From Polaromonas sp. (lineage in GTDB: Bacteria > Pseudomonadota > Gammaproteobacteria > Burkholderiales > Burkholderiaceae_C): DNA of 50,145 bases. Position 1 is the first letter of the stretch, and the number at the start of each line of letters is the position of its first letter. Position numbers and translations under genes: made by a program. The notes beneath the pieces were generated by a model, which worked only from the letters and a program-made list of their open reading frames with translations, was not told the DNA's origin and ran no database searches. This document shows, piece by piece, positions 3,374 to 49,410 of this stretch. The stretch lies in assembly GCA_043769005.1 (NCBI GenBank), contig JAYVJV010000050.1:1-50145 (forward strand). The letters are read 5' to 3'.

Positions 3374-4993
3374 ATGTTGGCCGTGCCAGCCACGCCACAG
3401 GCCAGCCTGCTGTCCACCCCGGTGCAGCAGGCCAACGCGCCCTACCACCTGCTCGCAGACATGCAGCGCGCGCTGTGGCTGCCTGCCCTGGTGTGCAGCA
3501 GCGGCAACACAGCCCAGCGCCTGCGTGACCTGCCGCACTGGGAAGCGGCCTTGCTCGTCGGGCAGTTGCCAGACCGCTTACACGACTTTGGCGACGGTGC
3601 AGCTTGTCAAGCACTGCGGTCCGTCATCGCCGACATCGGTCTTTGCGAGCTGGCACAGGGTAGCCAAGCCATGGTTCAGCAAGTGCTGCGCACCTTGCTA
3701 TGGCACTTGGATCGCTTGATAGACCGCACGGTCGATGAGCCACGCGCAAAGGCCATCGAGCGCATGGTGGCAGACTTTAAAGCCGCCTGGAGCCTGGAGC
3801 GCCAAGGCTGGGAGGAAGTGCTGGCCCTGTTTAAGACTCTCGGTGAGCTGCCCAACCAGCGCTGGGATGAACTGCAAGGCCGCCTGAACAGCCGCGCTTG
3901 GGCCGAGGCCAAGCGTATTGGTGAGCTGCTAACGCATCTGAAAGAATTAAGCAGCTTCATCGAGCGCCTGGGCCGCACCAGCCGCCTTGACGATATGCCG
4001 CTCAGCGCCCAACCCCTGGCCAATGCGCAGGCACAGCGCCAGCTTGTCGCGGTACAGATCAGCACAACACTGAGCGATCAACCTGGCGAGGTGCAAGGCA
4101 TCAAACATTCAGCCGACCTGGCCCGCATGCTGGCCAGCGAGGCCATCATGGTGCGCCATCCACAGCTTCGCCGCCTTTGGCAGGCGCGCTTTGCGGAAGC
4201 GCAACTGCTCACCTACGAAAGCCAGGCTGTACTGACACAATTCCACCTGCAACCCGATGTTCAACGCCATAACGCCGCCACTGCGCAGCCTGCCCCGCTA
4301 GGCATGGGCCCCATCATCGTCTGCCTGGATACCTCGGGCTCAATGTGCGGCGCGCCCGAGAACGTAGCCAAGGCCTGTGTACTGCAGGCCCTGCGCATTG
4401 CAATGGCAGGAAAGCGAGCATGCCAACTACTGGCCTTTGGCGGTACGGGCGAGCTGTTGGAACAGACACTGAGCTTGACCCCCAGCGGCCTGAACCATTT
4501 GCTGGACGTGATGGGCCAAAGCTTTGACGGTGGCACCGATGTACAAACCCCGCTGGAGCGCTCCATAGAACTGGTGCAATTGCAGGCGATGGCCTCGGCC
4601 GATATCTTGATCGTCAGTGATGGTGAGTTTGGCGTTACCCCTGCCACGCTAGCGCTGCTGCAAGATTGCAAAACCCGGCTGGGTCTGCGAGTGCATAGTA
4701 TTTTGATTGGCGACCGCGAAACCATGGGCCTGCGCGAGGTCAGCGATCATATCCACTGGGTACGCGCCTGGCGGCGTTACTCTACCCACGCAGTCGATGC
4801 CTACGGTGACGGTTTTTCGCCCGTGCACAGCCGTAGCCTAACGGCAGAGTATTTTCCCAACGCCATGCGACGCGCGCCCGGCGATGACCCTGGCAGCACC
4901 GAAACTTCAAACTTCCTTACGCCAAGCGGGCACTTGGTAGCACCCGGACGTGCTACGCAAAAACCGGGGATTGACCCCATAAATCATGCGTGA
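3374..4993 (+). CDS. viaA: ViaA-like VWA-domain protein, partner of RavA
   Basis: Starts 4 nt after the ravA stop. C-terminal VWA with MIDAS-type CLDTSGSM, FDGGTD and ILIVSDGEF. About 60 extra aa follow the ViaA-like HIHWVRAWRRY end, and the last codons and stop lie in repeat A1. Confidence 0.8.
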   Translation: MLAVPATPQASLLSTPVQQANAPYHLLADMQRALWLPALVCSSGNTAQRLRDLPHWEAALLVGQLPDRLHDFGDGAACQALRSVIADIGLCELAQGSQAMVQQVLRTLLWHLDRLIDRTVDEPRAKAIERMVADFKAAWSLERQGWEEVLALFKTLGELPNQRWDELQGRLNSRAWAEAKRIGELLTHLKELSSFIERLGRTSRLDDMPLSAQPLANAQAQRQLVAVQISTTLSDQPGEVQGIKHSADLARMLASEAIMVRHPQLRRLWQARFAEAQLLTYESQAVLTQFHLQPDVQRHNAATAQPAPLGMGPIIVCLDTSGSMCGAPENVAKACVLQALRIAMAGKRACQLLAFGGTGELLEQTLSLTPSGLNHLLDVMGQSFDGGTDVQTPLERSIELVQLQAMASADILIVSDGEFGVTPATLALLQDCKTRLGLRVHSILIGDRETMGLREVSDHIHWVRAWRRYSTHAVDAYGDGFSPVHSRSLTAEYFPNAMRRAPGDDPGSTETSNFLTPSGHLVAPGRATQKPGIDPINHA

Positions 4994-5014
4994 GCAGCTA
5001 CTAAAATAATAGCT
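4965..5014 (-). repeat. Family A short dispersed repeat, copy A1 (reverse orientation)
   Basis: The reverse complement reads GCTATTATTTTAGTAGCTGCTCACGCATGATTTATGGGGTCAATCCCC and aligns with the other copies. Confidence 0.65.
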
Positions 5015-5015
5015 G

Positions 5016-5657
5016 TTAACGATGCAGTGTGACACCTGTTTTGGCCTGTAGGTCGGCCATTGTCACGCCCGGTGCCAGCTCAATCACCTTCAAACCCTGC
5101 TCGGTCACGTCCATCACGGCCAGGTCGGTGATGATGCGATCGACCACGCCGACGCCTGTGAGAGGCAGTGTGCATTGCGGCAAAATCTTCATGTCTTCGC
5201 TGCCGTCTTTCTTTTTGGCGACATGCTCCATGAGCACGATGACGCGCTTGACACCCGCTACCAAATCCATCGCGCCGCCCATGCCTTTGACCATTTTTCC
5301 GGGGATCATCCAGTTGGCCAGGTCGCCTTTTTCGCTGACCTGCATGGCACCCAAAATGCTCAGGTTGATCTTGCCGCCGCGAATCATTGCAAAGCTGTCA
5401 TGGCTGCCAAAGATGCTGCTGCCTTTGATGGTGGTTACCGTCTGCTTGCCTGCGTTAATCAGGTCGGCATCTACTGCGTCGTCGGTGGGGAAAGGGCCAA
5501 TGCCGAGCATGCCGTTTTCGGACTGCAGCCACACTTCTTTGTCTGCGGGGACAAAGTTGGCTACCAGGGTGGGGATGCCGATGCCCAGGTTGACGTAGAA
5601 ACCGTCTTCGAGTTCACGGGCCGCGCGGGCGGCCATTTGGTCTTGACTCCAGCTCAT
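5016..5657 (-). CDS. scoB: 3-oxoacid CoA-transferase subunit B
   Basis: 213 aa. [30 protein letters not shown]...SENG is typical of subunit B. Confidence 0.9.
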
Positions 5658-5733
5658 ATCAAATTCCTTTTTTAGTCAGTTGAGGACAGAGCAACAGGGC
5701 ACTGCGTACGGTCCGTTGGGCTGTCCCGCAAAG

Positions 5734-6435
5734 TTATTTTGCTTCGGTAATAGTTCGTTTTTCGATGCGTTTTTCGGGCATGGCGTTGAGCACGATGCGG
5801 TGCACATAGATGCCTGCCAGATGAATATCGTCGGGTAGCAGCTCGCCTACTTCAACGATTTTTTCTACTTCCACAATGCAGACCTTGCCTGCCATGGCCA
5901 CGGCCGGATTGAAGTTGCGGGCCGTCAGGTTAAAGCGCAGGTTGCCGCTTTTGTCGGCGATGGCGGCTTTGACAAACGACACGTCGGGAAGCAAGGCTCG
6001 CTCCATCACATAGGTCTCGCCATCAAACTCACGCAGCTCTTTGCCCTCGGCCACCATGGTGCCTACGCCGGTTTTGGTAAAAAACGCAGGAATGCCTGCA
6101 CCGCCCGCGCGCAGCTTCTCGGCCAGCGTACCCTGCGGGGTAAATTCCAGCTCCAGCTCTTTGGCCAGGTACTGGCGTTCAAACTCTTTGTTCTCACCCA
6201 CATAGGACGAGATCATTTTTTTAATCTGACGGGTTTGCAGCAGCTTGCCCAGGCCAAAGTCGTCCACCCCGGCGTTGTTGGAAATAGCCGTGAGGTTTTG
6301 CACCCCACTGTCTTTGATGGCATCTATCAAGGCCTCGGGGATGCCGCACAGGCCAAACCCGCCCACCGCAATGAGCTGGCCGTCTTTGAGCACGCCTTTA
6401 ATTGCCGAGGCCGCACTGGGATGTATCTTGTTCAC
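5734..6435 (-). CDS. scoA: 3-oxoacid CoA-transferase subunit A
   Basis: Family-typical N-terminus NKIHPSAASAIKG...GGFGLCGIPE. I prefer the GTG at 6435 because GGAGA lies 7 nt upstream. The ORF track's TTG start at 6462 has no Shine-Dalgarno sequence. Confidence 0.85.
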   Translation of the reverse strand: MNKIHPSAASAIKGVLKDGQLIAVGGFGLCGIPEALIDAIKDSGVQNLTAISNNAGVDDFGLGKLLQTRQIKKMISSYVGENKEFERQYLAKELELEFTPQGTLAEKLRAGGAGIPAFFTKTGVGTMVAEGKELREFDGETYVMERALLPDVSFVKAAIADKSGNLRFNLTARNFNPAVAMAGKVCIVEVEKIVEVGELLPDDIHLAGIYVHRIVLNAMPEKRIEKRTITEAK

Positions 6436-6563
6436 TTCATAATCTCCATGGTTCAATAGCAAGCGCCATTCTACTGACTCAGCTTCTGACTGAAATGGAC
6501 TGAGTGTGCGAATTTTTTATCACCCCTGTTTTGACACCCACTAAGGTTCGGAGATTTTGTTGT

Positions 6564-7226
6564 ATGCCCTGGATTGCTCGTGCTCGCTGGTTTGTGCTCT
6601 TGCTGGGCCTGCCCTTGCTGCTGGTCATCGCATGGGATAGCAGCCCCGCTGATCTGCGGGCAGCTCAGTGGTACGGTACGTCCCAGGGTTTTGCGCTGGA
6701 ACATAACTACTGGCTGTCGCACATTTTGCACACCCGTATACGCCAAACCGGGGTGTTGCTAGGTTTGGCCTGTATTGCGCTCATTTGGTGGCCCCTGGGG
6801 CCATTGCGCCGCACCACGCGGCGTGAACGGGTTTGGCTGGCCTGTATGGTGTGGCTGTGCGCGGCGGGCATTGCAGTACTCAAGTCTTTCAGTCACACCA
6901 GTTGCCCTAACGATCTACAAGTCTTTGGCGGATTGGCGCGCTATGTCTGGCACTTTAGCCTGGCCAGCGATGACGGCCCGGGGCGCTGCTTTCCCTCGGG
7001 CCATTCGTCCACATTTTTCAGTTTTTTACCCGTCTTTTGGCTGCTGCGCCGCTACCAGCCACAGGGGGCATGGTGGTTTTTGGCAGCGCTGTGCCTACTG
7101 GGTCTGTCCCTGTCCTGGGTACAGGTGATGCGCGGCGCGCACTACCCCAGCCACATTCTTTGGACCGCTTGGCTGTGTTGGACTGCCAGCACGCTGGCAG
7201 CCCCCCTGGCTGGGCCAGCCCGGTAA
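6564..7226 (+). CDS. PAP2-family membrane phosphatase
   Basis: Multi-pass membrane protein with PAP2 motifs FPSGHSS and RGAHYPSH. Start is either ATG 6564 (GGAG upstream) or 6504. Confidence 0.7.
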   Translation: MPWIARARWFVLLLGLPLLLVIAWDSSPADLRAAQWYGTSQGFALEHNYWLSHILHTRIRQTGVLLGLACIALIWWPLGPLRRTTRRERVWLACMVWLCAAGIAVLKSFSHTSCPNDLQVFGGLARYVWHFSLASDDGPGRCFPSGHSSTFFSFLPVFWLLRRYQPQGAWWFLAALCLLGLSLSWVQVMRGAHYPSHILWTAWLCWTASTLAAPLAGPAR

Positions 7227-7230
7227 ACCC

Positions 7231-7599
7231 TTATGCGTCCACCACCTCTGAGGCGGTGCGAAATGCGTCCACCGCCGCTGGAAAACCACAGTACACACTG
7301 GCATGCATAAAGATCTCTTGCAGCTCTTCTTTGGTCACGCCATTGTTCAACGCACCACGCACATGGATTTTCAGCTCATGCATGCGACCCAAGGCTACTA
7401 ACATAGAAACTGTAACGATGCTGCGGGTTTTCAGGCTGATGCCATCCCTTTGCCAAGTGTTACCCCAAGCATGGTTAATCACCAGATCTTGCAACGGACG
7501 GGTGAAATCGGTGGATTTTTTCATCGCAGCTTGCACATAGTCTGCACCCAACACGGCAGTGCGAGTGGCCAAACCCTTGTCATACACGGAATTACTCAT
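7231..7599 (-). CDS. Carboxymuconolactone decarboxylase (CMD/AhpD-like) family protein
   Basis: Typical gamma-CMD sequence WGNTWQRDGISLKTRSIVTV...HVRGALNNGVTKEELQEIFMH. ATG 7599 is preceded by AAGGAG. Confidence 0.8.
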   Translation of the reverse strand: MSNSVYDKGLATRTAVLGADYVQAAMKKSTDFTRPLQDLVINHAWGNTWQRDGISLKTRSIVTVSMLVALGRMHELKIHVRGALNNGVTKEELQEIFMHASVYCGFPAAVDAFRTASEVVDA

Positions 7600-7671
7600 C
7601 AAATTGCTCCTTGAAAGCACTGTGAAAACAGGGATCATCGCACGCAAACGTCATTTAGGTAAAATACATGG

Positions 7672-8532
7672 GTGCAAGCCTCCTCTATTTTGAACGCCGA
7701 CCTCCACTGCCACAGCGTAGTGTCTGACGGCACCCTGACCCCTGAAGCCCTCGCTGAACGCGCAAAAAAAAATGGCGTAGAGCTATGGGCACTGACCGAC
7801 CATGACGAGATCAGCGGCCAACACCGGGCCGCTGCAGCCGCCAAAGCGCAGAGTATGCACTATGTGACGGGCACCGAAATATCGGTCACTTTTGCCAATG
7901 AAACGGTGCATATCGTCGGCCTGGGCTTTGACCCCGCTAGCAGCTCCATGCAAGCGGGCCTGCTGGCCACACGCGGCGGGCGCAGCGAACGGGCGCAGGA
8001 GATGTCGGCGCAACTCGCCAAGGTAGGTATTTACGGTGCCTATGAGGGGGCACTGAAATACGTGGGCAACCCCGAGCTGATCTCACGCACCCATTTCGCC
8101 CGCCACCTGGTAGAAAGCGGCGTTTGCCAAGAGACGCATGAGGTGTTTCGCAAATACCTTACCGAAGGCAACCCAGGCTATGTGCCGCACCGCTGGGCCA
8201 GCCTGCGCGATGCTGTGCACTGGATTACTGACGCGGGCGGCGTGGCCGTGATCGCTCACCCGGGGCGCTACAAATTTACGCCCACCGAAGAGTACGCACT
8301 GTTTACCGAGTTCAAAGCCCACGGCGGCCGCGCCACCGAGGTGGTGACGGGCAGCCACACGGCGGCTGAGTTTGTGAAATACGCCGAAACCGCCAAAGAA
8401 TTTAACCTGGCTGCTTCGCGCGGCAGCGACTTTCATTGCCCGGTAGAAAGCCGCACCGACTTGGGCACCCTGCCCTTTTTGCCCGGCATGCTAACCCCAG
8501 TGTGGGATTTGCTGCACGACCGCATTCAGTAA
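7672..8532 (+). CDS. PHP-domain phosphoesterase (TrpH/YciV-like)
   Basis: N-terminal DLHCHSVVSDG, HPGRY and GSDFH metal-ligand motifs. GTG start, which is uncertain. Confidence 0.8.
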   Translation: MQASSILNADLHCHSVVSDGTLTPEALAERAKKNGVELWALTDHDEISGQHRAAAAAKAQSMHYVTGTEISVTFANETVHIVGLGFDPASSSMQAGLLATRGGRSERAQEMSAQLAKVGIYGAYEGALKYVGNPELISRTHFARHLVESGVCQETHEVFRKYLTEGNPGYVPHRWASLRDAVHWITDAGGVAVIAHPGRYKFTPTEEYALFTEFKAHGGRATEVVTGSHTAAEFVKYAETAKEFNLAASRGSDFHCPVESRTDLGTLPFLPGMLTPVWDLLHDRIQ

Positions 8533-8560
8533 TGCCCCACTGTACTTTTCTGCTCGCTTG

Positions 8561-9511
8561 ATGCACAGCCGCCACTTTCTTGCGGGCATCGCCCTGGCCA
8601 TTGCCTCCTCGGCCTGTTTTGCGGTACTGGACACCACCGTACAGTACCTCAGCGCCTTTGTGCCCCTGCTGATGGCGCTGTGGCTACGCTACACCTTTCA
8701 GGCCACGGCGGCTGCGGCCTGGCTGCTGCCCACGCGCGGCCTGCGCATGTTGCACACCGAGCATCCCAAATTTCAAATCTCACGCGGCTTGTTGCTGCTG
8801 GTCAGCACCGGCCTGGCCTTTGCCAGCCTCAAGGTCATGCCGGTCAGCGAATTTACCGCGATAGTGATGATCACGCCTCTGGTCATCACGTTGATTTCAG
8901 CCGCGTTTTTTAAGCAGCATGTCGGTGTCCTGCGTTGGCTGCTCATCGTCGGGGGCTTTGTGGGCACCCTTATCATCATCCGCCCCAACCACCAGGGCTT
9001 TCAGGCCGCTTGGTTGTTGCCGTTGGGTTGTGTGGCTTCCAACACCGCGTTTCAGCTGCTCACCAGCAAGATGATGCGCACCGAAGACCCTCTAACCACC
9101 CAGTTTTACACCGGGGTAGTGGGCATGCTGATCGCCAGCCTGGCCATGCCTTTTGTGTTTGTCTGGCTAGACAACCCCAAGCTGTGGGCGTTGCTGCTCC
9201 TGATGGGTGTGGCCTCGTCGGCTGGACATTTCATGCTCATCAAGGCCTACCAAAAGGCCGCTACCGCTACCCTCATGCCCTATTTGTACGCGCAAATCGC
9301 TTTCGCCCTGCTGGGTGGTTGGCTGGTGTTTCGCTATGTGCCCGACGGCTGGTCCATGCTTGGCATGGCCTTGATTGGTGCCTGCGGCGCGCTCAGCGCC
9401 TGGTTGACGGTGCTTGAGAGCAAGACCAGCCCACATCCGTCCGACGCATCGCCCCACACACCAGCCCTCGCTGCGTCACCAGCGCCAGCAGCGGCGCAGC
9501 AGACCCGGTAG
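8561..9511 (+). CDS. EamA/DMT-family transporter
   Basis: About 10 predicted TM helices with a two-EamA-repeat architecture. Pro/Ala-rich C-terminal tail. Confidence 0.75.
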   Translation: MHSRHFLAGIALAIASSACFAVLDTTVQYLSAFVPLLMALWLRYTFQATAAAAWLLPTRGLRMLHTEHPKFQISRGLLLLVSTGLAFASLKVMPVSEFTAIVMITPLVITLISAAFFKQHVGVLRWLLIVGGFVGTLIIIRPNHQGFQAAWLLPLGCVASNTAFQLLTSKMMRTEDPLTTQFYTGVVGMLIASLAMPFVFVWLDNPKLWALLLLMGVASSAGHFMLIKAYQKAATATLMPYLYAQIAFALLGGWLVFRYVPDGWSMLGMALIGACGALSAWLTVLESKTSPHPSDASPHTPALAASPAPAAAQQTR

Positions 9512-9515
9512 GGCC

Positions 9516-10139
9516 ATGGCACAGCTATTTCAAGTCCACCCCGACAACCCGCAGCCGCGTTTACTCAAACAAGCCGTCGCCCTGCTGGGGCAAGGCGGCA
9601 TCGTGGCGGTGCCGACCGATTCGAGCTACGCCCTGGCCTGCCACCTGGACGACAAAGCCGCTGCCGACACCCTGCGCCGCATTCGCGGCGTAGACGACAA
9701 ACACCACCTCACCCTGCTGTGCCGCGACCTCAAAGAGCTGGCCACCTATGCGCGGGTAGACAACCACCAGTTTCGCCTGATCAAAGCGGGAACACCGGGG
9801 CCGTATACCTTCATACTGGAAGCCACCAAAGAGGTGCCGCGCCGCCTGAGCCACCCCAAACGCCTGACCATCGGCCTGCGCGTGCCTGGCCACCATACCT
9901 TGCAGGCGCTATTGGCACTGCATGGTGCGCCTTTGCTGGCAGCCACTTTGATCGCACCGGGTGAGACCGAGCCATTCAACGACTGCGAGGCCATCCGCGA
10001 GCGCTTTGAGCACCAGATAGCCGCCATCATCGACGCAGGGGCCTGCGCCAGCGAGCCCACCACGGTGGTAGATTTAACCGATAGCGAACCCGTGATAGTT
10101 CGCCTGGGTCGCGGCGACCCGGCAAAGCTGGGCCTGTAG
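9516..10139 (+). CDS. Sua5/YciO/YrdC/TsaC-family (threonylcarbamoyl-AMP synthase-like) protein
   Basis: LLGQGGIVAVPTDSSYALAC, DDKHHLTLLCRD and GPYTFIL. I chose the internal ATG 9516 to avoid overlap with the transporter. Confidence 0.8.
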   Translation: MAQLFQVHPDNPQPRLLKQAVALLGQGGIVAVPTDSSYALACHLDDKAAADTLRRIRGVDDKHHLTLLCRDLKELATYARVDNHQFRLIKAGTPGPYTFILEATKEVPRRLSHPKRLTIGLRVPGHHTLQALLALHGAPLLAATLIAPGETEPFNDCEAIRERFEHQIAAIIDAGACASEPTTVVDLTDSEPVIVRLGRGDPAKLGL

Positions 10140-10236
10140 CGCAGCTTGGCGCGCCGAGCTGTGCGGTGCAAAAAAACCGCTATCAAAAAGCCAAAATCTT
10201 TTGTAGCAAGACAGCCGAGTCTGAGACAATCAGACT

Positions 10237-10905
10237 ATGGACATTTCCAACCTGATTCAAACCGTACTCATTTACGCCCTGCCCGTGATCTTTGCCATCA
10301 CGGTTCACGAGGCGGCCCACGGCTACGCGGCCCGGCACTTTGGCGACAACACGGCCTATTCGCTCGGGCGCATCACACTCAATCCGCTCAAGCATATTGA
10401 CCCGGTGGGCACCATCGCCATGCCTTTGCTGCTGTACTTTGCAACGGCGGGTACGTTTTTGTTTGGCTACGCTAAGCCCGTGCCAGTACGTTTTGGCAAC
10501 CTGCGCAATCCCAAGCGCGACATGGTGTGGGTGGCATTGGCGGGTCCCGCCGTCAACCTGCTGCAAGCCTTGATTTGGGGGGTGCTGCTGTATCTGGTGA
10601 TGGGTGTGCAGCTCAATGAACGCTTTTTTATTGAGATGTGCAAAGCGGGCATGTTGGTCAATGTGGTGATGTTTGTGTTTAACCTGTTCCCGCTGCCGCC
10701 CTTGGACGGAGGCCGCATTCTGGTGGGCTTGCTGCCCTACCGCCAGGCCGAGCTGGTTTCGCGCATAGAGCCCTATGGATTTTTTGTGGTGATGGGGCTG
10801 GTGATCGCGGGTGTGCTGGGCAGCATCTGGATGCGCCCCCTGATGAACCTGACCTACGGGTTCATTGACCTGGTGCTGACCCCCTTGGGCTTTTTGGTGA
10901 AGTAG
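10237..10905 (+). CDS. Site-2 protease (peptidase M50) family membrane protein
   Basis: HEAAHGYAA zinc motif, multiple TM helices, and FNLFPLPPLDGG. Confidence 0.85.
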   Translation: MDISNLIQTVLIYALPVIFAITVHEAAHGYAARHFGDNTAYSLGRITLNPLKHIDPVGTIAMPLLLYFATAGTFLFGYAKPVPVRFGNLRNPKRDMVWVALAGPAVNLLQALIWGVLLYLVMGVQLNERFFIEMCKAGMLVNVVMFVFNLFPLPPLDGGRILVGLLPYRQAELVSRIEPYGFFVVMGLVIAGVLGSIWMRPLMNLTYGFIDLVLTPLGFLVK

Positions 10906-10906
10906 T

Positions 10907-12112
10907 ATGAGCGACGAGAAAAAACGCGTTTTATCTGGCATGCGCCCCACGGGCGCACTGCACCTGGGCCACTACCATGGCGCGCTGAAAAACTGGGTGC
11001 GTTTGCAGTCCGAGATGGAGTGCTTTTTCTTCGTGGCCGACTGGCACGCCCTCACCACCCATTACGACAACCGCGAGATCATCGAGCAAAACGTCTATGA
11101 AATGGTGATCGACTGGCTGGCCGCCGGGCTCGACCCTAACCAATGCACCATCTTTTTGCAAAGCCGCATGCCCGAACATGCCGAGCTGTTTACCCTGCTG
11201 GCCATGGGCACACCGCTGAGCTGGCTGGAGCGCGTGCCCACCTACAAAGACCAGCAAATCCAGCTCAAAGACAAAGACCTGTCTACCTATGGCTTTTTAG
11301 GTTACCCACTGCTGCAAGCGGCCGATATTTTGATGTACCGCGCGCACTTCGTGCCCGTAGGTGAAGACCAGGCCAGCCATGTGGAGCTGACGCGCGAGAC
11401 CGCACGCCGCTTTAACGACCTGTATGGCCGCCGGAACAACGATGCAGAGCGCGTCACCGCGCTGCTAGCCACCTGGCCCAAGGAAGATGCGCGCTACTTG
11501 AGTAGCATGGCCAAAAAACGCAAGGAACTGGGCGACGAGTCCATGCTGCAAAAACTACCCGGTTTTTTGGCCAAGTTTCCAGATTTAAGCGCCGACCAGC
11601 ACGCCCTGCTGACCTCGTTTGTGAGCGGCAAAGGCAAGGCCGTACTGGTAGAGCCGCAGGTGCTGCTGACCAACGCCAGCAAGCTGCCCGGCCTGGATGG
11701 CCGCAAAATGAGCAAAAGCTACGGCAACGGCATTGCTATGCGCGAAGAAGCCACCAGCATCGAGAAAAAAATCCGTGAAATGCCCACCGACCCAGCCCGC
11801 GTCAAACGCACCGACAAAGGCGACCCCGCCAAGTGCCCGGTGTGGCAGTTTCACCTGGTGTACTCCGACGATGTCCGCAAGCAATGGGTCACCGAGGGCT
11901 GCACTACTGCTGGCATCGGCTGCATTGAGTGCAAAAAGACCATCAGCGACTCGATACTGCAAGAGCAGCAGCCTATGCTTGCGCGGGCAAAACCTTACGT
12001 AGATAATCCAAAGGTTGTACGGGAAATTGTGGACGCAGGCTGCGCCCGCGCCAAGCGTTTTGCACAAGAAACGATGTATCATGTCAGAGAGGCAGTCGGC
12101 GTGAACTATTAG
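10907..12112 (+). CDS. trpS: Tryptophan--tRNA ligase (long betaproteobacterial form)
   Basis: Class I HIGH-type motif GALHLGHYHG and KMSKS present. Confidence 0.9.
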   Translation: MSDEKKRVLSGMRPTGALHLGHYHGALKNWVRLQSEMECFFFVADWHALTTHYDNREIIEQNVYEMVIDWLAAGLDPNQCTIFLQSRMPEHAELFTLLAMGTPLSWLERVPTYKDQQIQLKDKDLSTYGFLGYPLLQAADILMYRAHFVPVGEDQASHVELTRETARRFNDLYGRRNNDAERVTALLATWPKEDARYLSSMAKKRKELGDESMLQKLPGFLAKFPDLSADQHALLTSFVSGKGKAVLVEPQVLLTNASKLPGLDGRKMSKSYGNGIAMREEATSIEKKIREMPTDPARVKRTDKGDPAKCPVWQFHLVYSDDVRKQWVTEGCTTAGIGCIECKKTISDSILQEQQPMLARAKPYVDNPKVVREIVDAGCARAKRFAQETMYHVREAVGVNY

Positions 12113-12199
12113 ACATAAATGCATAAAATATTACAAAATATACTAATGCTTTCATTGCCACACTGAACCTTACGTTTCGCTCTAACTTTAAAAACAATC

Positions 12200-12787: not shown

Positions 12788-12807
12788 TCTGTACCCGCAA
12801 GTGCAGG

Positions 12808-14238: not shown

Positions 14239-14371
14239 ACCAAGAGTCTAACGCCTGGAGTCCAGGCCAGGGGAAGCATAAGGACAGGAGTATCCGACGT
14301 TCACAGAGTCACCGGGATAAGGTCGTTGCAAATAATCCGATACCCCTGCTGACTTTTTTTCGACACCAAAG

Positions 14372-14406
14372 AAAAAACCTTACGATATATTTTTAATAGC
14401 GTAAGG
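14372..14406 (-). terminator. Hairpin plus T-run downstream of tRNA-Ser
   Basis: On the minus strand: CCTTACG, 15-nt loop, CGTAAGG, then TTTTTTC. Confidence 0.55.
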
Positions 14407-14414
14407 CTTCGGTC

Positions 14415-14504
<90 letters not shown>

Positions 14505-14587: not shown

Positions 14588-15970
<1,383 letters not shown>

Positions 15971-18565: not shown

Positions 18566-18626
18566 GTAGGGGCCTTAGATTGAAATGATTGGAAGATAAT
18601 TGGACGAAAAAGTGGAAGAACAAGTT

Positions 18627-18680
18627 GCTATAAAAAAATGAGCTGCTTACACTATATTTTAAAGGGCTGCAGCCCTATTT
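18627..18680 (+). repeat. Family A short dispersed repeat, copy A2 (intergenic)
   Basis: GCTATAAAAAAATGAGCTGCTTACACTATATTTTAAAGGGCTGCAGCCCTATTT. By hand count, 37 of the first 48 positions match copy A5. Confidence 0.8.
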
Positions 18681-18690
18681 GACCATCAAA

Positions 18691-20082
<1,392 letters not shown>

Positions 20083-21255
20083 TTAAATGGCTTGCACGAC
20101 CCACTGCCCGGCGGCTTCCACCAGGGCGCGGTCACAGGTAAATTCTTGTACTTCGTGCTCGTGGCCGGGCAGTACGCACACCACGGTCTCGCCGCGTGCA
20201 CGCAGGCCTTGCACTGCCGCGCGCAGGGCAGCGCCCTCGCCCCACGGTGCGCGGATAGCGGCCTTGAGCGGCCTGGCAGGCAGTACACCCACCAGTTCCT
20301 TCACGTCCAGGCTAAAGCCCACCGCCGGGCGGTTGCGGCCAAACACCGAGCCCACCTCGTCGTAGCGGCCCCCGCGCACCAATGCGTCGGCCAGCTTGTG
20401 ATGGGCACCAGGGGTGTACACGGCAAAGCGCACACCCGTGTAGTAGGCGTAACCGCGCGAGTCGGCCAAATCAAAACTGACCTTTACCTGCGGCTGGGCA
20501 GCCTGCACACGGCCTGCCAGTTGCTTCAAATTTGATAGCTGCTTACGCATGTTTTCATTGGGCTGGAAGGCTTTTTCTGCCTTTACCAGCACCGTCTCGT
20601 CACCATACAGCTGCACCAGCGTGGCCAGGCCGTTGCGGCTGGCTGCGGGAAAGCTGGCGGTCAGCTCTGCCAGCGTGGCAGCATCTTTGGCCGCCAGCGC
20701 AGCGTGCACGGCATCTAGCTGGGCTGGGCTGGCCTGCACGCCAGCGAGCAGGCTGCGCACCAAGCGTGCATCGGCCAGATCGACGGTAATGTCTTTCACA
20801 CCTGCGCTGTGCAGACAGTCAATGGCCAGCAGCAGCACTTCCAGGTCAGCCTCAGTGCCTGCGTGGCCAAACATTTCTGCACCAAACTGCAAGGGCTCGC
20901 GCGTGGCGTGCGGCCTGGCAGGCGCGGTGTGCAGCACCGGGCCGCAGTAGCACAGGCGGGCCACGCCGCTGCGGTTGAGCAAGTGTGCATCTATGCGCGC
21001 CACCTGGGGCGTGGTGTCAGCGCGCAGGCCCATGGTGCGGCCCGAAAGCTGGTCTACCAGCTTGAAGGTTTGCAAGTCCAGCGCCTCGCCGGTGCCAGTG
21101 AGCAGGGATTCGAGATATTCCAGTTGCGGCGGCATCACCAGCTCGTAGCCGTAGCTGCGGGCGGTGTCTAGCAACTGGCGGCGCAGTTCTTCGATGTGCC
21201 GCGCCTCAGAGGGCAAAACATCGGCAATATGGTCGGGCAGTACCCAGGCGGACAT
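20083..21255 (-). CDS. hisZ: ATP phosphoribosyltransferase regulatory subunit
   Basis: Class II aaRS-like paralogue. The N-terminus [16 protein letters not shown] is typical of HisZ. Start set at ATG 21255. Confidence 0.85.
20521..20571 (+). repeat. Family A short dispersed repeat, copy A3 (inside hisZ)
   Basis: TTGCTTCAAATTTGATAGCTGCTTACGCATGTTTTCATTGGGCTGGAAGGC. Read on the minus strand as [16 protein letters not shown]. Confidence 0.7.
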
Positions 21256-31752: not shown

Positions 31753-32638
31753 ACAAAACCATTATCAGGCCGCAAAGGGCAAACCATTGAAAAGCATAAC
31801 CGTAATGTTTGGCTACGCCAGCATCGACTGCGGGCCAGTCGCGCAGCAGGCCATCGCTATCGGGGCCACTGCTCGGCTCGTTACGCTGCTGACTGCCACG
31901 CTCGTAAACTTGACCACTGGGCACTGTTTGCAAGAGCGCCACGCTGTGCCACTGCACAGGCCGTCCCAAGTCTACGTGGGGTAGATTTTGCCAAATACGC
32001 GATGCCCCTGCTGCCAAGGGTGCACTGGCGCTGCGCTGCGCATCGCCCAGTTCATATACCCGCGAGACCGACTCCACCACCCTGCCCTGCACCGCCACCG
32101 TGCCCACCGGGGTAGCCACCACGGGCAAGCGGCTACGCTCCAGTGGGTCACGCGCCACCCAGCCACGCTGCACCCACACCACGCTGGGTGCAGCCGGCGC
32201 AGCCTGTCCAGGCGCAGGCTCTAGCTGCAAGGGGGTCACCACGAAAAAGCCGGGCTTACCCGCCATATAGCGGTTATCTAAAAATACCGTATGCGCCGCC
32301 AGCCAGGTGCCGCGCAACTGGGCCCGTCGGTACACCAAGGTCTGTGCAGAGTCGTCTGGAATGGCTTGTGAAAGCGCTTCATTGGCTTGCCCATTTACCT
32401 GCCCATCTGCTTCTTTTTTAATAGCTGCTTGCGCTATGTTTATAAGGGCTGGGAGTCTATTTCGCTCTTCTATCTGCGCTGCAAGCTGCTCTTTGGTACT
32501 GGCACGCTGCAATTGCCATGCACCCAGGCTGGCTGCTGCGCCCATCGCCAAAAGCGTTAGCACCCCCAGCACACAACCGGCCTTGCGTTGGGTGTGCCGT
32601 GCGGTCTTTGGATCCTGAGTGGGCGCGGCGGGCAACAT
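31709..32638 (-). CDS. SURF1-family cytochrome oxidase biogenesis protein
   Basis: N-terminal TM helix plus WQLQR, YRRAQLRGTW, C-terminal KHYGYAFQWF and a TM helix. Start trimmed to ATG 32638. Confidence 0.8.
   Translation of the reverse strand: MLPAAPTQDPKTARHTQRKAGCVLGVLTLLAMGAAASLGAWQLQRASTKEQLAAQIEERNRLPALINIAQAAIKKEADGQVNGQANEALSQAIPDDSAQTLVYRRAQLRGTWLAAHTVFLDNRYMAGKPGFFVVTPLQLEPAPGQAAPAAPSVVWVQRGWVARDPLERSRLPVVATPVGTVAVQGRVVESVSRVYELGDAQRSASAPLAAGASRIWQNLPHVDLGRPVQWHSVALLQTVPSGQVYERGSQQRNEPSSGPDSDGLLRDWPAVDAGVAKHYGYAFQWFALCGLIMVLYVWFQLISHRRRKA
32415..32465 (+). repeat. Family A short dispersed repeat, copy A7 (inside SURF1)
   Basis: TTTTTTAATAGCTGCTTGCGCTATGTTTATAAGGGCTGGGAGTCTATTTCGC. 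Read on the minus strand as LPALINIAQAAIKKE. Confidence 0.75.
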
Positions 32639-38532: not shown

Positions 38533-39450
38533 TCACTTAGGCATGGGCCTGCCTTGGGCCAGCAGGGCGCGCATGTCTTGCATCGACACCGACGACTCCG
38601 AGCTGACTTTAATGCGGGGACTGGGCTTGAATGCGTGGCCATAAATAATTTCAAACGTCAGCTGGATGCTGCCGCCCTCACTGGCAACGCCCATTTGCTC
38701 CTGCATCGCAGCCTCTAGCCGCGCCCGGTAGCCGCGCCCCCGCAGACCGGCAAAGCGCTGCGGATGCAGATTGCGACCCAGGCCGCGCAGCTCTTGCAGG
38801 GCGCGCTGTGGACTGGCAAAGCTGAGCACGATGCGTTCCATATCCATCACTGGCTCGGCAAAGCCCGACTGCACCAGCATGTCGCCCCAGTCGTGCATGT
38901 CGGTAAAGCTGTGGCTGCACGGGCCCCAGCCCAGCGCAAGGTAGAGCTTTTGCAGCTCGCGCACGGTGTCTGGCCCCAGGCAAGAGAACATCAAAAAACC
39001 ATCCACCGCCAGCGCCCGCTGCCATTGCCCGATCAGCGCTAAGGGGTCAGCCTGGCTATGCAGCAACATGTTAGCCCACACTAGTTGCACTGCGCCGTCT
39101 GTGGGCGGCCCTGAGTGCGTTGCACCAGCGTGCCAACGGGCTGGATTCCACCACGGTTTAGCTACTGATTTAATAGCTGCTTGCGCAATATTTAATTGGC
39201 TTTCCACCATATAACATGCTGAATTTGCGTATTGCGCAGCGACTTTTTGATGGGTTTGCATGCCGCCTTGCAGCGGAGCCCAATGCGCCCATGCCGCAGG
39301 CGCTTTTTTAATCCACTGCAAGCGCTCTTGCATGCGGCTGCCCACCTCTTCGTGCAGCCAGGGTGCCTGCAAATGGCTGCTACGCTCGCGCACGCGCTCC
39401 CAGTGCGCTGCGGCCAGGGGATCGATGGTGGGGGGGCGATGGTCTGCCAT
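38533..39450 (-). CDS. BioC-like methyltransferase-fold protein with a degenerate SAM motif
   Basis: Class I methyltransferase-like core (VQLVWANMLLH...ALAVDGFLMFSCLGPDT). The Gly-rich motif I is replaced by WAHWAPLQGG. Start trimmed to ATG 39450, divergent from comF. Confidence 0.6.
   Translation of the reverse strand: MADHRPPTIDPLAAAHWERVRERSSHLQAPWLHEEVGSRMQERLQWIKKAPAAWAHWAPLQGGMQTHQKVAAQYANSACYMVESQLNIAQAAIKSVAKPWWNPARWHAGATHSGPPTDGAVQLVWANMLLHSQADPLALIGQWQRALAVDGFLMFSCLGPDTVRELQKLYLALGWGPCSHSFTDMHDWGDMLVQSGFAEPVMDMERIVLSFASPQRALQELRGLGRNLHPQRFAGLRGRGYRARLEAAMQEQMGVASEGGSIQLTFEIIYGHAFKPSPRIKVSSESSVSMQDMRALLAQGRPMPK
39161..39215 (+). repeat. Family A short dispersed repeat, copy A8 (inside the BioC-like gene)
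   Basis: GCTACTGATTTAATAGCTGCTTGCGCAATATTTAATTGGC... The 28-nt core matches copy A7 at 24 positions by hand count. Read as ESQLNIAQAAIKSVA. Confidence 0.75.
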
Positions 39451-39613
39451 AGTGTGCGGCGTGAGGGGTAGCGTTAAAGGGTGGTGTAGTGCAATCAAAG
39501 GCATTAAAGGGCAGCTGCCGTGCTGCGCAGTATATGGGTTGATACTTGCTTGCCCTGCCGCTGTGGTCTTCAATTTATCATCGGCTATTGAATTTTTTTC
39601 TTTTCTGCAACCC

Positions 39614-43857: not shown

Positions 43858-44090
43858 TTTTTTGAACGCAGAGGGCGCGAAGATTTCGCAGAGAGCGCAG
43901 AAAAGAAATACAAAAATAAAACCAAAAAATTTTAAAAAAGCTTGTTCCTAGTTGAGCTGTTTTATTTTTTCTTTTTTTATTTCTATCTCTATTTTTATTT
44001 TTTGCTTTCTATTTTTGTCTTCTTTTGTCTCTTTTTCTTTCCCCTTTCTGCGTTCTCTGCGAAATCTTCGCGCCCTCTGCGTTCAAAAAA
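43858..44090. mobile_element. Family B MITE-like long palindromic element, copy B2
   Basis: Terminal inverted repeats TTTTTTGAACGCAGAGGGCGCGAAGATTTCGCAGAGAGCGCAG and CTGCGTTCTCTGCGAAATCTTCGCGCCCTCTGCGTTCAAAAAA. The interior is AT-rich and polypyrimidine. An extra solo end, CGCGTTCAAAAACTC, lies at 44121-44135. Confidence 0.75.
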
Positions 44091-44167: not shown

Positions 44168-45100
44168 ATGAAACACTACCTCCAGTTCAACGACCTTACC
44201 GCCGACGAATACCAGCATGTTTTCGCCCGTGCCACCGAGATCAAGCGCAAGTTCAAGGCGTATGAAAAATACCACCCGCTGGCCGACCGCACGCTGGCGA
44301 TGATTTTTGAGAAGGCCTCTACCCGTACCCGCGTGAGCTTTGAGGCTGGCATGTACCAGCTGGGCGGCAGCGTGGTGCACCTCACCACCGAGGGCAGCCA
44401 GCTGGGCCGCGCCGAGCCCATTGAAGACAGCGCCAAGGTGATTAGCCGCATGGTGGACATCGTGATGATCCGCACCTTTGAGCAAACCAAGATCGAGGCC
44501 TTTGCCGCGCACAGCCGCGTGCCCGTCATCAACGGCCTGACCAACGAGTTTCACCCCTGCCAGATCCTGGCCGACATCTTCACCTTTGAAGAGCAGCGCG
44601 GCTCCATCAAAGGCAAAACCGTGGCCTGGGTGGGCGATGGCAACAACATGGCCAACACCTGGCTGCAAGCTGCCGCCATCCTGGGATTCAAGGTCAACGT
44701 GAGCACTCCGCGCGGCTACGAGATAGACCCCAAATTATTAGGCAATTTAGGCTTAAGCCCAATAAAGAGTAGCGCAAGCAGCTACCAATTTTATAGCAAT
44801 CCAATGGATGCCTGCAAGCATGCCCACCTGGTCACCACCGATGTCTGGACCAGCATGGGCTTTGAGGCCGAGAATGCCGTGCGCAAGCTGGCCTTTAACG
44901 ACTGGTGTGTAGACCAGGAGATGATGCGCGCCGCCCAGCCAGATGCCCTGTTCATGCACTGCCTGCCCGCGCATCGCGGTGAAGAAGTTGAGGCTGCGGT
45001 CATCGACGGCCCGCAGTCGGTGGTGTGGGACGAGGCGGAAAACCGCATGCATGTGCAAAAGGCGTTGATGGAGTATTTGCTGCTGGGCAAGGTGCCATAG
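44168..45100 (+). CDS. argF: Ornithine carbamoyltransferase
   Basis: STRTR carbamoyl-phosphate motif, HPCQ, DVWTSMG and HCLPAHRGEE. Confidence 0.95.
   Translation: MKHYLQFNDLTADEYQHVFARATEIKRKFKAYEKYHPLADRTLAMIFEKASTRTRVSFEAGMYQLGGSVVHLTTEGSQLGRAEPIEDSAKVISRMVDIVMIRTFEQTKIEAFAAHSRVPVINGLTNEFHPCQILADIFTFEEQRGSIKGKTVAWVGDGNNMANTWLQAAAILGFKVNVSTPRGYEIDPKLLGNLGLSPIKSSASSYQFYSNPMDACKHAHLVTTDVWTSMGFEAENAVRKLAFNDWCVDQEMMRAAQPDALFMHCLPAHRGEEVEAAVIDGPQSVVWDEAENRMHVQKALMEYLLLGKVP
44741..44797 (-). repeat. Family A short dispersed repeat, copy A9 (inside argF)
   Basis: The reverse complement reads GCTATAAAATTGGTAGCTGCTTGCGCTACTCTTTATTGGGCTTAAGCCTAAATTGCC. Read on the plus strand as GNLGLSPIKSSASSYQFYS. 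Confidence 0.75.
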
Positions 45101-47485: not shown

Positions 47486-47588
47486 GTTTTGCCTTCGGTT
47501 GGTTTGTATGTTCCGATCGGTTGTATGCTTCGGAGGTTTTTTTGCGTTCAGATGGTTTGATGCCCCGGCACTTGGGGTGATTGGCTAC

Positions 47589-47635
47589 GCGGCTGTCCTC
47601 CGTGGCGGTCTATGATCGCCACGGAGGATAGCCGC
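47589..47635. repeat. Long GC-rich hairpin (19-bp stem, one mismatch)
   Basis: GCGGCTGTCCTCCGTGGCG, 9-nt loop, CGCCACGGAGGATAGCCGC. Lies between convergent phoX and ntrC, with no flanking T-run. Confidence 0.6.
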
Positions 47636-47658
47636 AGAGCCAAGTGCGCCGCTCGCCA

Positions 47659-47750
47659 GATCCCGTGATGAGCCAGAGACTAATCCCGCAATGATCCCGT
47701 GATACGCCAGACCAATCCCGTAAATGATCCGGTGATGCCTCGCCCACCAG
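47659..47750. repeat. About 2.7 tandem copies of a 33-34 bp unit
   Basis: GATCCCGTGATGAGCCAGAGACTAATCCCGCAAT, then GATCCCGTGATACGCCAGACCAATCCCGTAAAT, then GATCCGGTGATGCC... Lies immediately 3' of the ntrC stop. Confidence 0.6.
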
Positions 47751-47754
47751 CGCC

Positions 47755-49410
47755 CTACTCCAGCCCCAGCTCTGCAATTTTTCGCGTGATGGTGTTGCGG
47801 CCAATGCCCAGTTTTACCGCTGCTTCGATGCGCCGGCCTCGGGTGGTGGACAGGGCTGCCGCTATGAGCTGGCGCTCAAAGCGGGCGGTGAGCTGGTCCC
47901 ACACGTCGCCTTTGTCCTGCGCTAAAAGCTGAAGGGCTTCGGCGGTTAAGTCGGCTTCCCAGCCTGCGCTGGCGGTGGTGGCGTTGATCGGCGCGGACGG
48001 CTGGGCATCTAGCGGCGCGGCCTGCGTTGCCGTTACGCTTACACTTACGCTGGGTTGTGTATCTAATTGACCTGCAGGCCAATGAGAACTAGCGTAAGCA
48101 GCTTCTGTATTGATAGCGTCTTGAATACGCCGTGCAGCGCTGGGGGCATCGCTGGGTATATCAGCGAGTGCCGCCGCACCGGTTGCGCCGATTGCCAGTT
48201 CGGGCATCAATGCAATAGCTGCCACTGCACCCTGCCCTTGCAGCACCTCGGGCGGCAAATCCTTCACGTCAATCACCTGGCTGGGTGCCATCACCATCAG
48301 CCAGTGGCAGATGTTCTCTAGCTGGCGCACGTTGCCGGGAAAGGCAAACTGCGACAGCCTGGCCAGCGCGGCGGGCGAGATGCGTTTGGGCTCGCCGCCC
48401 AGTTGCTTGGCCGACTGCTGCAAAAAATGCCGGGTGAGCGCGGCGATGTCTTCGCGGCGCTCGCGCAGGGGCGGCAGGCGCAGGCGGATGACGTTGAGGC
48501 GGTGAAACAGGTCTTCCCTAAAGCCGCCCTCTTTCACGCGCTGCTCCAGGTTTTGGTGGGTGGCGGCAATCACCCGCACATTGGTTTTCACGGCGCTGTG
48601 GCCGCCGACGCGGTAGAAGCTGCCGTCGGACAGCACGCGCAGCAGGCGGGTTTGCAAATCAAACGGCATGTCGCCAATTTCATCTAAAAACAGCGTACCG
48701 CCGTCGGCCTGCTCAAAGCGGCCCCGGCGCATGGTTTGCGCGCCAGTGAATGCACCGCGCTCGTGGCCAAACAGCTCGCTCTCTAGCAAATCTTTGGGGA
48801 TAGCTGCGGTATTGATAGCTACAAACGGCCCGCTAGAGCGGGCACTATGCTTGTGCAAGGCCTTGGCCACCAGCTCTTTGCCGCTGCCCGACTCGCCGGT
48901 GATCATCACCGTCACGTTACTTTGGCTCAGGCGACCGATAGCACGAAACACGTCTTGCATGGCGGGGGCTTGGCCTAGCATCTCAGGGGCGCTGACAACC
49001 GCCTCGACCGCTACGTCCTCGCGCTGGCTCTCCTCTACGGCGCGTCGGATCAGCTCGGTGGCTCGTGCGATGTCAAATGGTTTGGGCAGGTATTCAAACG
49101 CGCCGCGTTGAAAAGCATTCACCGCGCTGTCCAGGTCGCTAAACGCCGTCATGATGATGATGGGCAGGCCGGGGTGCTTTTCTTTCACCTTGGTTAGCAA
49201 GTCGAGGCCTGAGCCGCCGGGCATGCGAATGTCGCTGACCAGTACCTGCGGTGGCAGGTTGTCGGCGTCGTTCTCGTCGGTGTTGTCCAGCGCAATAAGC
49301 AGGTCGCGCGGGTTGGTAAAGCTGCGGGTGGGCAGGTCTTCGCGCAGCAGGGCTTTCTCCAGCACGAAACGGATAGACTGGTCATCGTCTACGATCCAAA
49401 TAGGCTTCAT
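47755..49410 (-). CDS. ntrC: Sigma-54-dependent response regulator NtrC (NR-I)
   Basis: Receiver domain (IWIVDDDQSIRFVLEKAL...DIRMPG), AAA+ domain with GESGSGKE and GAFTGA, and a C-terminal Fis-type helix-turn-helix. Has an unusually long ~90-aa linker. Confidence 0.92.
   Translation of the reverse strand: MKPIWIVDDDQSIRFVLEKALLREDLPTRSFTNPRDLLIALDNTDENDADNLPPQVLVSDIRMPGGSGLDLLTKVKEKHPGLPIIIMTAFSDLDSAVNAFQRGAFEYLPKPFDIARATELIRRAVEESQREDVAVEAVVSAPEMLGQAPAMQDVFRAIGRLSQSNVTVMITGESGSGKELVAKALHKHSARSSGPFVAINTAAIPKDLLESELFGHERGAFTGAQTMRRGRFEQADGGTLFLDEIGDMPFDLQTRLLRVLSDGSFYRVGGHSAVKTNVRVIAATHQNLEQRVKEGGFREDLFHRLNVIRLRLPPLRERREDIAALTRHFLQQSAKQLGGEPKRISPAALARLSQFAFPGNVRQLENICHWLMVMAPSQVIDVKDLPPEVLQGQGAVAAIALMPELAIGATGAAALADIPSDAPSAARRIQDAINTEAAYASSHWPAGQLDTQPSVSVSVTATQAAPLDAQPSAPINATTASAGWEADLTAEALQLLAQDKGDVWDQLTARFERQLIAAALSTTRGRRIEAAVKLGIGRNTITRKIAELGLE
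48063..48118 (-). repeat. Family A short dispersed repeat, copy A10 (inside the ntrC linker)
   Basis: The reverse complement reads GCTATCAATACAGAAGCTGCTTACGCTAGTTCTCATTGGCCTGCAGGTCAATTAG, translated as AINTEAAYASSHWPAGQLD. Confidence 0.75.

Follow-up and report, generated by a model that had tools for sequence, protein, structure and literature searches.

A short dispersed repeat, here called family A, recurs in a 50,145-nt stretch of DNA from Polaromonas sp. (contig JAYVJV010000050.1, 58% GC; this whole stretch is referred to as the window) and in loci or contigs fetched from related genomes, which are designated by L-numbers. It is a rigid, AT-rich motif of 57 nt, present in the window as ten full copies and one half copy, and its description as a hairpin-forming mobile palindrome is not supported. 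Inside open reading frames (ORFs), family A appears mostly to overwrite existing codons and not to enter as an inserted cassette. The explanation that we favour, tentatively and knowing that it may well be wrong, is that family A is an old, vertically inherited, lineage-restricted and actively maintained recognition motif, which has spread by short-patch replacement at native sites that look like it.

The motif follows the pattern TTGCTA-N9-TAGCTGCTTGCGC-N4-TTT..TGGGCTnnAGCC..ATTT and carries about 50 bits of information. Its conserved blocks are, in order, TTGCTA, nine AT-rich bases, TAGCTGCTTGCGC, four bases, TTT, TGGGCT-NN-AGCC and ATTT, and the core TAGCTGCT..CGC reaches up to ~1.8-2 bits per position. 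The GC content of the element is ~43-45%, against 58% for the window, and a tandem arrangement is never seen, either in the window or in the loci. A profile built with nhmmer from the window copies recovered each of the ten at E-values of 1e-9 to 1e-15; as this test is circular, the profile was rebuilt from 77 intergenic copies taken solely from other genomes. This independent profile recovered all ten window copies as well (19-46 bits, E 3e-5 to 1e-13), while 20 shuffled versions of the window reached 10 bits at best. The window copies can be aligned with one another over ~57 nt without any gap, at pairwise identities of 0.39-0.74 (mean 0.59), and not one indel occurs among 210 copies in 975 kb of loci. 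Moreover, the ~50-bit profile is reproduced by 54 copies from the window and from loci chosen by their proteins, although 42 of the 54 would have been missed by the search pattern.

The ten copies listed in a preliminary description of this DNA are therefore borne out by gapless alignment and by the independent profile. Two of its coordinates shift, the copy placed at 23914 starting at 23899 and that at 32415 starting at 32406, and a half-length eleventh match is added. ORF calls and profiles also confirm the placement that it gave: inside hisZ, SURF1, a BioC-like gene, argF and ntrC, at the N-terminus of SCO (its first 20 codons), and at the C-terminus and stop codon of a ViaA-like gene. Both orientations are used, as it had said, and its more than one reading frame proves to be four different frames in the window. 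The copies are as follows.

4960..5016, minus strand: family A copy across the final ~11 codons, TGA stop included, of a ViaA-like VWA gene (3374-4993, plus strand); 30 bits.
18624..18680, plus strand: family A copy, intergenic between purA (18691-20061, minus strand) and a phosphoribosyltransferase gene (18041-18565, minus strand); 36 bits.
19432..19460, minus strand: half-length match (left arm and core) inside purA; 15 bits, E 6e-4 to 7e-4.
20520..20576, plus strand: family A copy inside hisZ (20083-21255, minus strand), which is encoded on the opposite strand; 45 bits with the independent profile.
23899..23955, plus strand: family A copy, the weakest full one, covering the final five codons plus stop of a sensor-kinase gene (21196-23913, plus strand); 19 bits, E 3e-5.
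25728..25784, plus strand: family A copy, the best of the window, intergenic, 47 nt past the stop of the gene 24818-25681 (plus strand); 46 bits.
28726..28782, minus strand: family A copy encoding residues 2-20 of the SCO1/SenC lipoprotein, its signal peptide (MFAINKLAAYALFICSTALFVTLYGC; gene 28183-28785, minus strand; Pfam SCO1-SenC); 37 bits.
32406..32462, plus strand: family A copy inside SURF1 (31709-32638, minus strand), peptide RNRLPALINIAQAAIKKEA, in a hypervariable loop; 35 bits.
39158..39214, plus strand: family A copy inside a weak BioC-like methyltransferase gene (38533-39450, minus strand), peptide CYMVESQLNIAQAAIKSVA; 39 bits.
44744..44800, minus strand: family A copy inside argF (44168-45100, plus strand), peptide NLGLSPIKSSASSYQFYSN; 41 bits.
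48064..48120, minus strand: family A copy inside ntrC (47755-49410, minus strand), peptide DAINTEAAYASSHWPAGQL, in the linker that joins the AAA+ lid to the helix-turn-helix (HTH) domain; 40 bits.

The comparison of inserted with native sequence covered hisZ, argF, the BioC-like gene, SCO and SURF1 among the window genes; no orthologues of ntrC or of the ViaA-like gene were found among the fetched loci. In hisZ, the motif-encoded peptide has an unchanged length in 120 orthologues, down to 72% identity, and LSNLK(Q/W)LA is kept in all of them. Against Acinetobacter HisZ (8oy0) the region shows gaps of at most 1-2 residues, with total lengths of 389 and 390 aa. The hisZ copy thus reads as an overlay without any change in length, and the earlier view of its peptide as a lineage-specific insertion is refuted by the same-length native peptide in these orthologues. 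In argF, 11 of the 19 motif codons (SSASSYQFYSN, the second half) lie over a native strand region, which reads ATAGSNQFFSD in Acidovorax and SAPFYQVFDD in the ornithine carbamoyltransferase (OTC) of Burkholderia. The net gain, from 120 orthologues and from a codon comparison, is 4 residues relative to the nearest relatives and 7 to 8 relative to outgroups; the alignment with 4f2g has a 7-residue gap. A predicted structure of poor overall quality (mean pLDDT 62.5) renders the copy as a helix end, a low-confidence loop and the YQFY strand. By alignment, the argF copy is part overlay, on the native SYQFYSN strand, and part gain.

The BioC-like gene is equal in length to the single aligned orthologue (L109), whose DNA at this place is a decayed AT-rich copy, and the same site scores 40 bits in L235 and 19 bits in L236. 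SCO has 200 aa in the window, L235 and L236, and family A encodes its lipoprotein signal peptide in all three; there is no length change, but both orthologues carry a copy there too (34 and 49 bits), so that equal length says little about insertion in SCO or in the BioC-like gene. A second copy stands straight after the SCO stop in L235 (14424-14484) and L236 (14284-14341), and the window is without it. SURF1 is the only window gene with a sizeable gain. Relative to the short-loop orthologue in L236, which has no copy, L235 is longer by 13 codons and the window by 25, and some six motif codons overlie the native (S)KLAAL. The segment LPAL.NIAQAAI is common to dozens of SURF1 orthologues and is missing from the short-loop ones.

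Outside the window, the same range of outcomes is found. The highest score of any copy, 55 bits, belongs to one in the PurK gene of a Polaromonas metagenome-assembled genome (MAG), which is gapless against Burkholderia PurK, reading YALNMPLAQANRAQAATEFIAEHL against PAPAASDALVRDAQQAAARIADSL. The domain spans at copies in a thiolase, AroE, KsgA and one FemAB-like protein differ from expectation by -1, +3, +4 and +1, respectively, and these copies read as overlays on conserved native segments. An AMP-binding enzyme has a domain span of +11, and its copy, on a conserved N-terminal helix, also reads as an overlay. On the other side, in the glycerol kinase GlpK of L053, another Polaromonas MAG, the place of the copy coincides exactly with a clean insertion of 18 residues that no solved GlpK has, and the proline-dehydrogenase domain of PutA is 20 residues longer than its profile at a copy. 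Family A therefore comprises insertions like those of Rickettsia palindromic elements (RPEs), pure overlays and intermediates. The preliminary description had taken in-frame insertion as the general mode, and this holds for GlpK, in part for argF and SURF1, and fails for hisZ, where the sequence is native and of equal length.

In-ORF overlays usually lie at native sites that resemble the core, for example GCG-CAA-GCA-GCT (Ala-Gln-Ala-Ala) or the TCAAATTTGA patch of hisZ, and such places are termed proto-sites below. In argF, native AGC-TAC-CAG stands opposite the core AGCAGCTA; PurK and thiolase, judged by protein alignment, also appear to have proto-sites, in native A-Q/A-x-A-A helices. The case of hisZ was followed in DNA from 114 contigs, 110 of them metagenomic and the others being the window, L111, L112 and L114. 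The homologous site scores 46-65 bits only in the window and its close relatives. In ~25 further orthologues, from genomes with few or no copies, it scores -25 to +9 bits, yet it is still the best site of the gene, the background being -30 to -60. The rare codons CTA TCA AAT TTG AAG, which form the palindrome TCAAATTTGA, match the left arm of the motif and are conserved even at 72% GC, in a gene from a genome without family A copies. In the window this site is at 20532-20556, and the synonymous positions of these codons are kept in L114, L121, L133, L135, L169 and others, and in many Comamonadaceae.

This conservation implies a putative nucleotide-level constraint inside hisZ, upstream of purA, which is probably older than family A. 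As the hisZ proto-site is present where family A is rare or absent, including genes of 72% GC, it probably predates the family, and the TCAAATTTGA codons in orthologues lacking a full copy suggest that native hisZ partly resembled the motif before the full copy appeared. The scores of the hisZ site, listed with the identity of each HisZ to that of the window, are these.

Window: identity 100%, 61 bits.
L111: identity 94%, 65.5 bits.
L112: identity 88%, 46 bits.
L243: identity 87%, 46 bits.
L245: identity 85%, -40 bits.
L244: identity 84%, none.
L113: identity 80%, 20 bits.
L114: identity 76%, 6 bits.

The HisZ peptide of L245, AQTTFAANKSMHKPLANLKQLA, keeps the motif-derived residues (ANK.M.K.L.NLKQLA) despite the lost DNA match, and the sampled 7.2 kb of L245 (52% GC), including the spacer downstream of purA, hold no family A copy at all. 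It seems that the DNA match decays where the family is absent and persists where it is present, a pattern that is suggestive, on short contigs. Such lineage-dependent decay points to a lineage-specific trans-acting cause. Persistence is visible elsewhere, too. Copies at orthologous positions occur in species whose DNA is just 68-89% identical, and the copy downstream of purA (18624..18680) has orthologues in L111, L112, L113, L105 and L039, its motif blocks being kept in six genomes although indels and other divergence mark the rest of the spacer. Across 14 orthologous pairs, identity is 67-100% at high-information positions, 33-92% at low-information positions and 64-89% in the flanks.

RNA or DNA structure is rejected as the basis of family A after a covariation scan and folding against shuffles. 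Among 207 copies, no column pair shows a Watson-Crick excess, and eight of the ten window copies fold no better than their shuffles (z -0.5 to +0.6), with predicted folds that differ from copy to copy. The alternative hairpins of GCTAT, ATAGC and GCTAT and the 3' palindrome noted in the preliminary description are present as sequences in some copies, but these results leave the label palindromic unsupported. In the same 207 copies, there are no column correlations that would mark subfamilies (maximum mutual information 0.18). A comparison of left and right flanks in 206 copies gave no diagonal of excess identity such as target-site duplications (TSDs) would leave, the maximum excess being 0.10 and scattered. 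Terminal inverted repeats (TIRs) were not found, the consensus ends ATTGCTAT... and ...CCTATTT being not complementary and without covariation. With the window copies 39-74% identical and with no subfamilies, TSD, TIR or shared fold, nothing points to recent transposition.

Other possible roles were likewise examined. The periodogram of the conserved blocks has no peak at the 10-11 bp of helical phasing, and Rfam at gathering thresholds returned nothing on the repeats in the window, only a tRNA. A promoter or terminator role is rejected, as no terminator-like site coincides with any family A copy and the two promoter-like matches on copies are weak (9 of 12) and dependent on window-specific bases. 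The GC content at low-information positions looks the same in interior and intergenic copies, and the flanks are AT-shifted as well, so that copy-paste and point mutation are not separated by this measure.

Family A is restricted to Polaromonas/Rhodoferax-type Comamonadaceae of 56-59% GC. When one genome per species was scanned with the pattern, the matches listed, more than 107 stretches, were in their great majority from Polaromonas, Rhodoferax, Albidiferax, Curvibacter and other Comamonadaceae, in line with the Comamonadaceae-like host expected at the outset. In a protein-anchored sample, 1.12 Mb of contigs picked via proteins and not via the motif, 39 of 45 copies lay within loci of 56-59% GC (mean 1.1, up to 5 per 10 kb), and none was found in 387 kb of relatives' loci with at least 64% GC. 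The frequency in Polaromonas/Rhodoferax-type genomes is about 1 per 2-10 kb. A single PutA ORF (L092, 1-2703) has copies at three places (residues 208, 537 and 843), each in a different frame and orientation class. Phage origin or carriage is rejected, since 2.9 million viral contigs yielded six pattern matches and zero genuine copies. A literature search found no prior description; the family appears undescribed so far, as had been supposed.

In relation to genes, the 210 copies fall into 85 intergenic, 66 ORF-interior, 41 across ORF ends, 16 close to the start of the ORF that contains them and 2 at its stop. The interior share is thus 31%, with 59 more overlapping or abutting ORF ends, so that about a third of the family resides inside ORFs. 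Two of the six frames hold 35 and 15 of the 66 interior copies, respectively; the favoured frames encode approximately N-x-P-x-A-Q-x-N-R-A-Q-A-A-x-E-x-I-A or A-I-x-x-x-A-A-x-A. Intergenic and interior copies share a common profile at all codon positions. With all frames and both orientations in use and synonymous positions tracking the motif, the earlier proposal that the similarity lies in the DNA and not in a protein motif is upheld. Non-interior copies stand at a median of 21 nt past a stop and 20 nt ahead of the next start, and 39 of 127 classifiable ones (31%) are in convergent gaps, compared with 121 of 810 gaps overall (15%). In L105 (~5140-5160) and L039 (~2205-2225) the left arm of the motif is GCTCCT, not GCTAT. 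On the transcribed strand this becomes AGGAGC, ~6 nt ahead of the phosphoribosyltransferase start codon (ATG), and the repeat therefore seems to supply its ribosome-binding site.

Simple selfish insertion fails for the overlays, the proto-sites and the maintenance, and pure point mutation fails for the 18-residue insertion and the 50 shared bits. The tentatively favoured explanation, which would cover all the observations, has two steps. First, a strand copied from an existing copy would anneal by microhomology at a look-alike native site and be built in. The templated patch would resemble short-patch double illegitimate recombination (hereafter SPDIR) or a gene-conversion patch, with a net length change anywhere from zero to the whole unit, and selection would retain only the events that the protein tolerates. 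The conserved blocks would then be kept because they are read by a lineage-specific trans-acting factor, either a DNA-binding protein or a transmission bias. We infer the copy-paste step from the pattern of overlays and gains, and the retention step from conservation and lineage-dependent decay. In SPDIR, an ectopic single strand anneals at microhomologies and replaces a short patch, leaving clustered substitutions or micro-indels and a variable net length (bioRxiv 10.1101/2023.11.22.568220). This fits the mix of pure overlays and gains of 4 to 25 codons in family A; SPDIR has, however, been described as a rare mutation mechanism and not as a way for a repeat family to spread, and its application here would be an extrapolation.

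Several alternatives have been weighed against this explanation. That there is no real family, and that the resemblance comes from low-complexity, AT-rich composition or from a common protein motif, for example A-Q-A-A helices, has almost no probability left. Some low interior matches (19-25 bits) do fall on widely conserved peptides, such as GANRLASNSL of NadB, and the core does encode the common Ala-Gln-Ala-Ala, but the separation of the independent profile from shuffles refutes the idea for the ten window copies, and a profile shared at all codon positions, in four frames and on both strands, speaks against it generally. A selfish element of the RPE type, inserted as a unit and in frame into housekeeping genes, simply tolerated since then and adding lineage-specific peptides, is quite improbable as a general account. 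RPEs are the known precedent (PMC10969869), and family A is like them in being a short dispersed repeat that lies in frame in unrelated conserved genes, is common to related species and has no known linked transposase. Its 57 nt make exactly 19 codons and its copies occupy four frames; GlpK, with its insertion coinciding with the copy, behaves as an RPE would, and the PutA domain and the SURF1 loop also show gains. RPEs, in contrast, are ~100-150 bp long, their peptide is absent from orthologues and their host genome is reduced and AT-rich, whereas family A has a rigid 57 bp without a structural signal and a free-living host of 58% GC. Most tested in-gene copies, moreover, replace native codons with little or no length change. 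No gain in length is seen in HisZ, PurK, thiolase, AroE, the AMP-binding enzyme or the SCO signal peptide, where the motif peptides align with native residues, and the argF gain is just 4-8 of 19 residues. The probable age of the hisZ proto-site, the missing palindromic structure and the conservation of motif blocks amid diverging flanks tell against such an element as well.

A motif of the kind used as uptake signals, the USS of Pasteurellaceae or the DUS of Neisseriaceae, would accumulate in place by point mutation and be fixed with a bias by the uptake or transmission machinery. This is improbable too, though it explains much: the rigid gapless motif with a near-invariant core and AT-rich flanks, the use of both orientations, and the frame bias with which native codons are overlaid. 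Known uptake sequences are 34-65% intragenic, with reading-frame biases in coding regions (PMC2817400), and family A is similarly clade-wide, has positions common to species, and is absent from the scanned viral contigs and from relatives outside the clade; the hisZ site, in addition, decays in one sampled lineage where no family copies were found. Family A is, however, four to five times longer than the 9-12-bp cores of known uptake sequences, with ~50 bits, and its density of about 1 per 2-10 kb is below theirs. Multi-codon gains as in SURF1 and argF are also foreign to them, and the GlpK insertion is impossible by point mutation. In the literature search, nothing on sequence-specific uptake or on competence came up for these genera.

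Among other repeat classes, the REP, BIME and REPIN sequences resemble family A in being short and abundant, in lying just past stop codons with enrichment between convergent genes, and in keeping their positions partly between species. REPs, however, have the form of imperfect, GC-rich palindromes, lie outside genes by definition and are associated with RAYT transposases, whereas family A is AT-rich, shows neither covariation nor a stable fold, and is ORF-interior in nearly a third of its copies. MITEs (miniature transposable elements with inverted repeats) such as Correia/NEMIS and ERIC are likewise small, non-coding and dispersed, and are sometimes intragenic with in-frame fusions (PMC10969869); a classical MITE is rejected for family A by the lack of TIR, TSD, indels and subfamilies, and the loci inspected showed no related autonomous insertion sequence with matching ends. 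BRE, the beta-proteobacterial repeat element of Hot et al. 2011, is reported from Polaromonas, Rhodoferax, Acidovorax and Delftia, with some copies wholly inside coding sequences, and its unit is ~75-91 bp long, has ~69% GC and is often tandem, with variable-number repeat behaviour (PMC3110155). Identity with BRE is rejected, given 57 bp against ~90 bp, 43-45% against 69% GC, and the complete lack of tandem copies.

For the maintained recognition motif spread by short-patch replacement, several points weigh on the other side. Its functional half, a factor that would read the motif, is an inference. About 50 bits over 57 bp far exceeds what a single recognition site normally needs and is easier to reconcile with a common descent of the copies than with separate origins. 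The run of hisZ scores (6, 20, 46 and 61-65 bits) could also reflect gradual change, and the absence of the family from the L245 and L244 lineages is based on 7.2 and 2.9 kb only. Conservation between orthologous pairs carries a bias, as a pair counted only when its two members were both detected, and the hisZ comparison is less affected; genes in the loci were called by a crude codon-usage caller; and the microhomologies at the patch junctions are putative. A bolder version, which is possible and yet on balance doubtful, is that the Polaromonas/Rhodoferax clade has a genome-wide recognition or drive system, in which a trans-acting factor reads the 57-bp motif and the pressure to retain a copy every few kilobases rewrites coding sequence in place. 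The factor might be a protein of the nucleoid or of segregation, or else machinery for DNA uptake or transmission bias. HisZ and PurK helices, the lipoprotein signal peptide, and the OTC, SURF1 and GlpK loops would have been rewritten in this way, and copies would decay after loss of the factor.

Some features of the host genes and of their surroundings complete the description of the window. The copy at 4960..5016 lies within a convergent gap facing the gene 5016-5657 (minus strand), and the match to the ViaA profile stops at residue 460, which corresponds to position 470 of 487, so that the copy closes a C-terminal extension of ~60 residues. That at 23899..23955 ends 12 nt upstream of a response-regulator start (23968). 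The half match in purA may be a proto-site or chance. The gene 24818-25681 may be folD-like, as read from its translation. The similarity of the methyltransferase gene to BioC is 75 bits, against a cut-off of 185. In this part, the longest ORFs, 38533-39819 and 39260-40408, overlap on opposite strands and longest-ORF calls are misleading; the true BioC-like start is probably at ~39450 (MADHRPP...), with the divergent ORF 39260-40408 starting farther downstream. In ntrC, Pfam domains stop at residue 393 and resume at 510 (HTH_8, 510-547), and residues 4-395 match positions 1-387 of the NCBIfam ntrC profile (463 positions) as the first of two stretches, from which a linker ~80 residues longer than that of the profile would follow.

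The sole RNA gene found is a tRNA-Ser (anticodon CGA) at 14417-14504 on the minus strand, and family A is absent from the surrounding 13.6 kb (5017-18623). A near-perfect hairpin unrelated to family A, with 30-nt arms that are 87% complementary and a 3-nt loop, occupies 47581-47643, in the convergent gap that separates the 3' end of ntrC from a gene ending at 47485. There is also a second repeat family, at 24593-24792 and 43858-44090 of the window and at 9770-9966 of L109. It consists of two arms of ~50-80 nt, 84-90% complementary (TTTTTTGAACGCAGAGGGCGCGAAG...), around an AT-rich centre of ~100 nt, and it looks MITE-like. Its copies stand just upstream of two genes, the folD-like one and argF, and the argF-side copy is present in the orthologous L109 as well.

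Dispersed bacterial repeats usually divide into selfish insertions, such as REP, MITEs and RPEs, and short oligomers that arise in place, such as uptake sequences, HIP1 and Chi. Family A mixes both groups, with the length and information of an element and the codon overwriting of an uptake sequence, and it is maintained apparently only where the family persists. For annotation, this means that AT-rich patches of family A should not be taken as insertions or assembly errors. If the proposed explanation is true, family A would be a tractable example of how pressure at the DNA level reshapes conserved proteins, among them a signal peptide that a repeat encodes, and it would suggest a possible natural role for short-patch templated replacement. 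It would also provide a handle on a DNA-recognition system in abundant freshwater and glacier bacteria.

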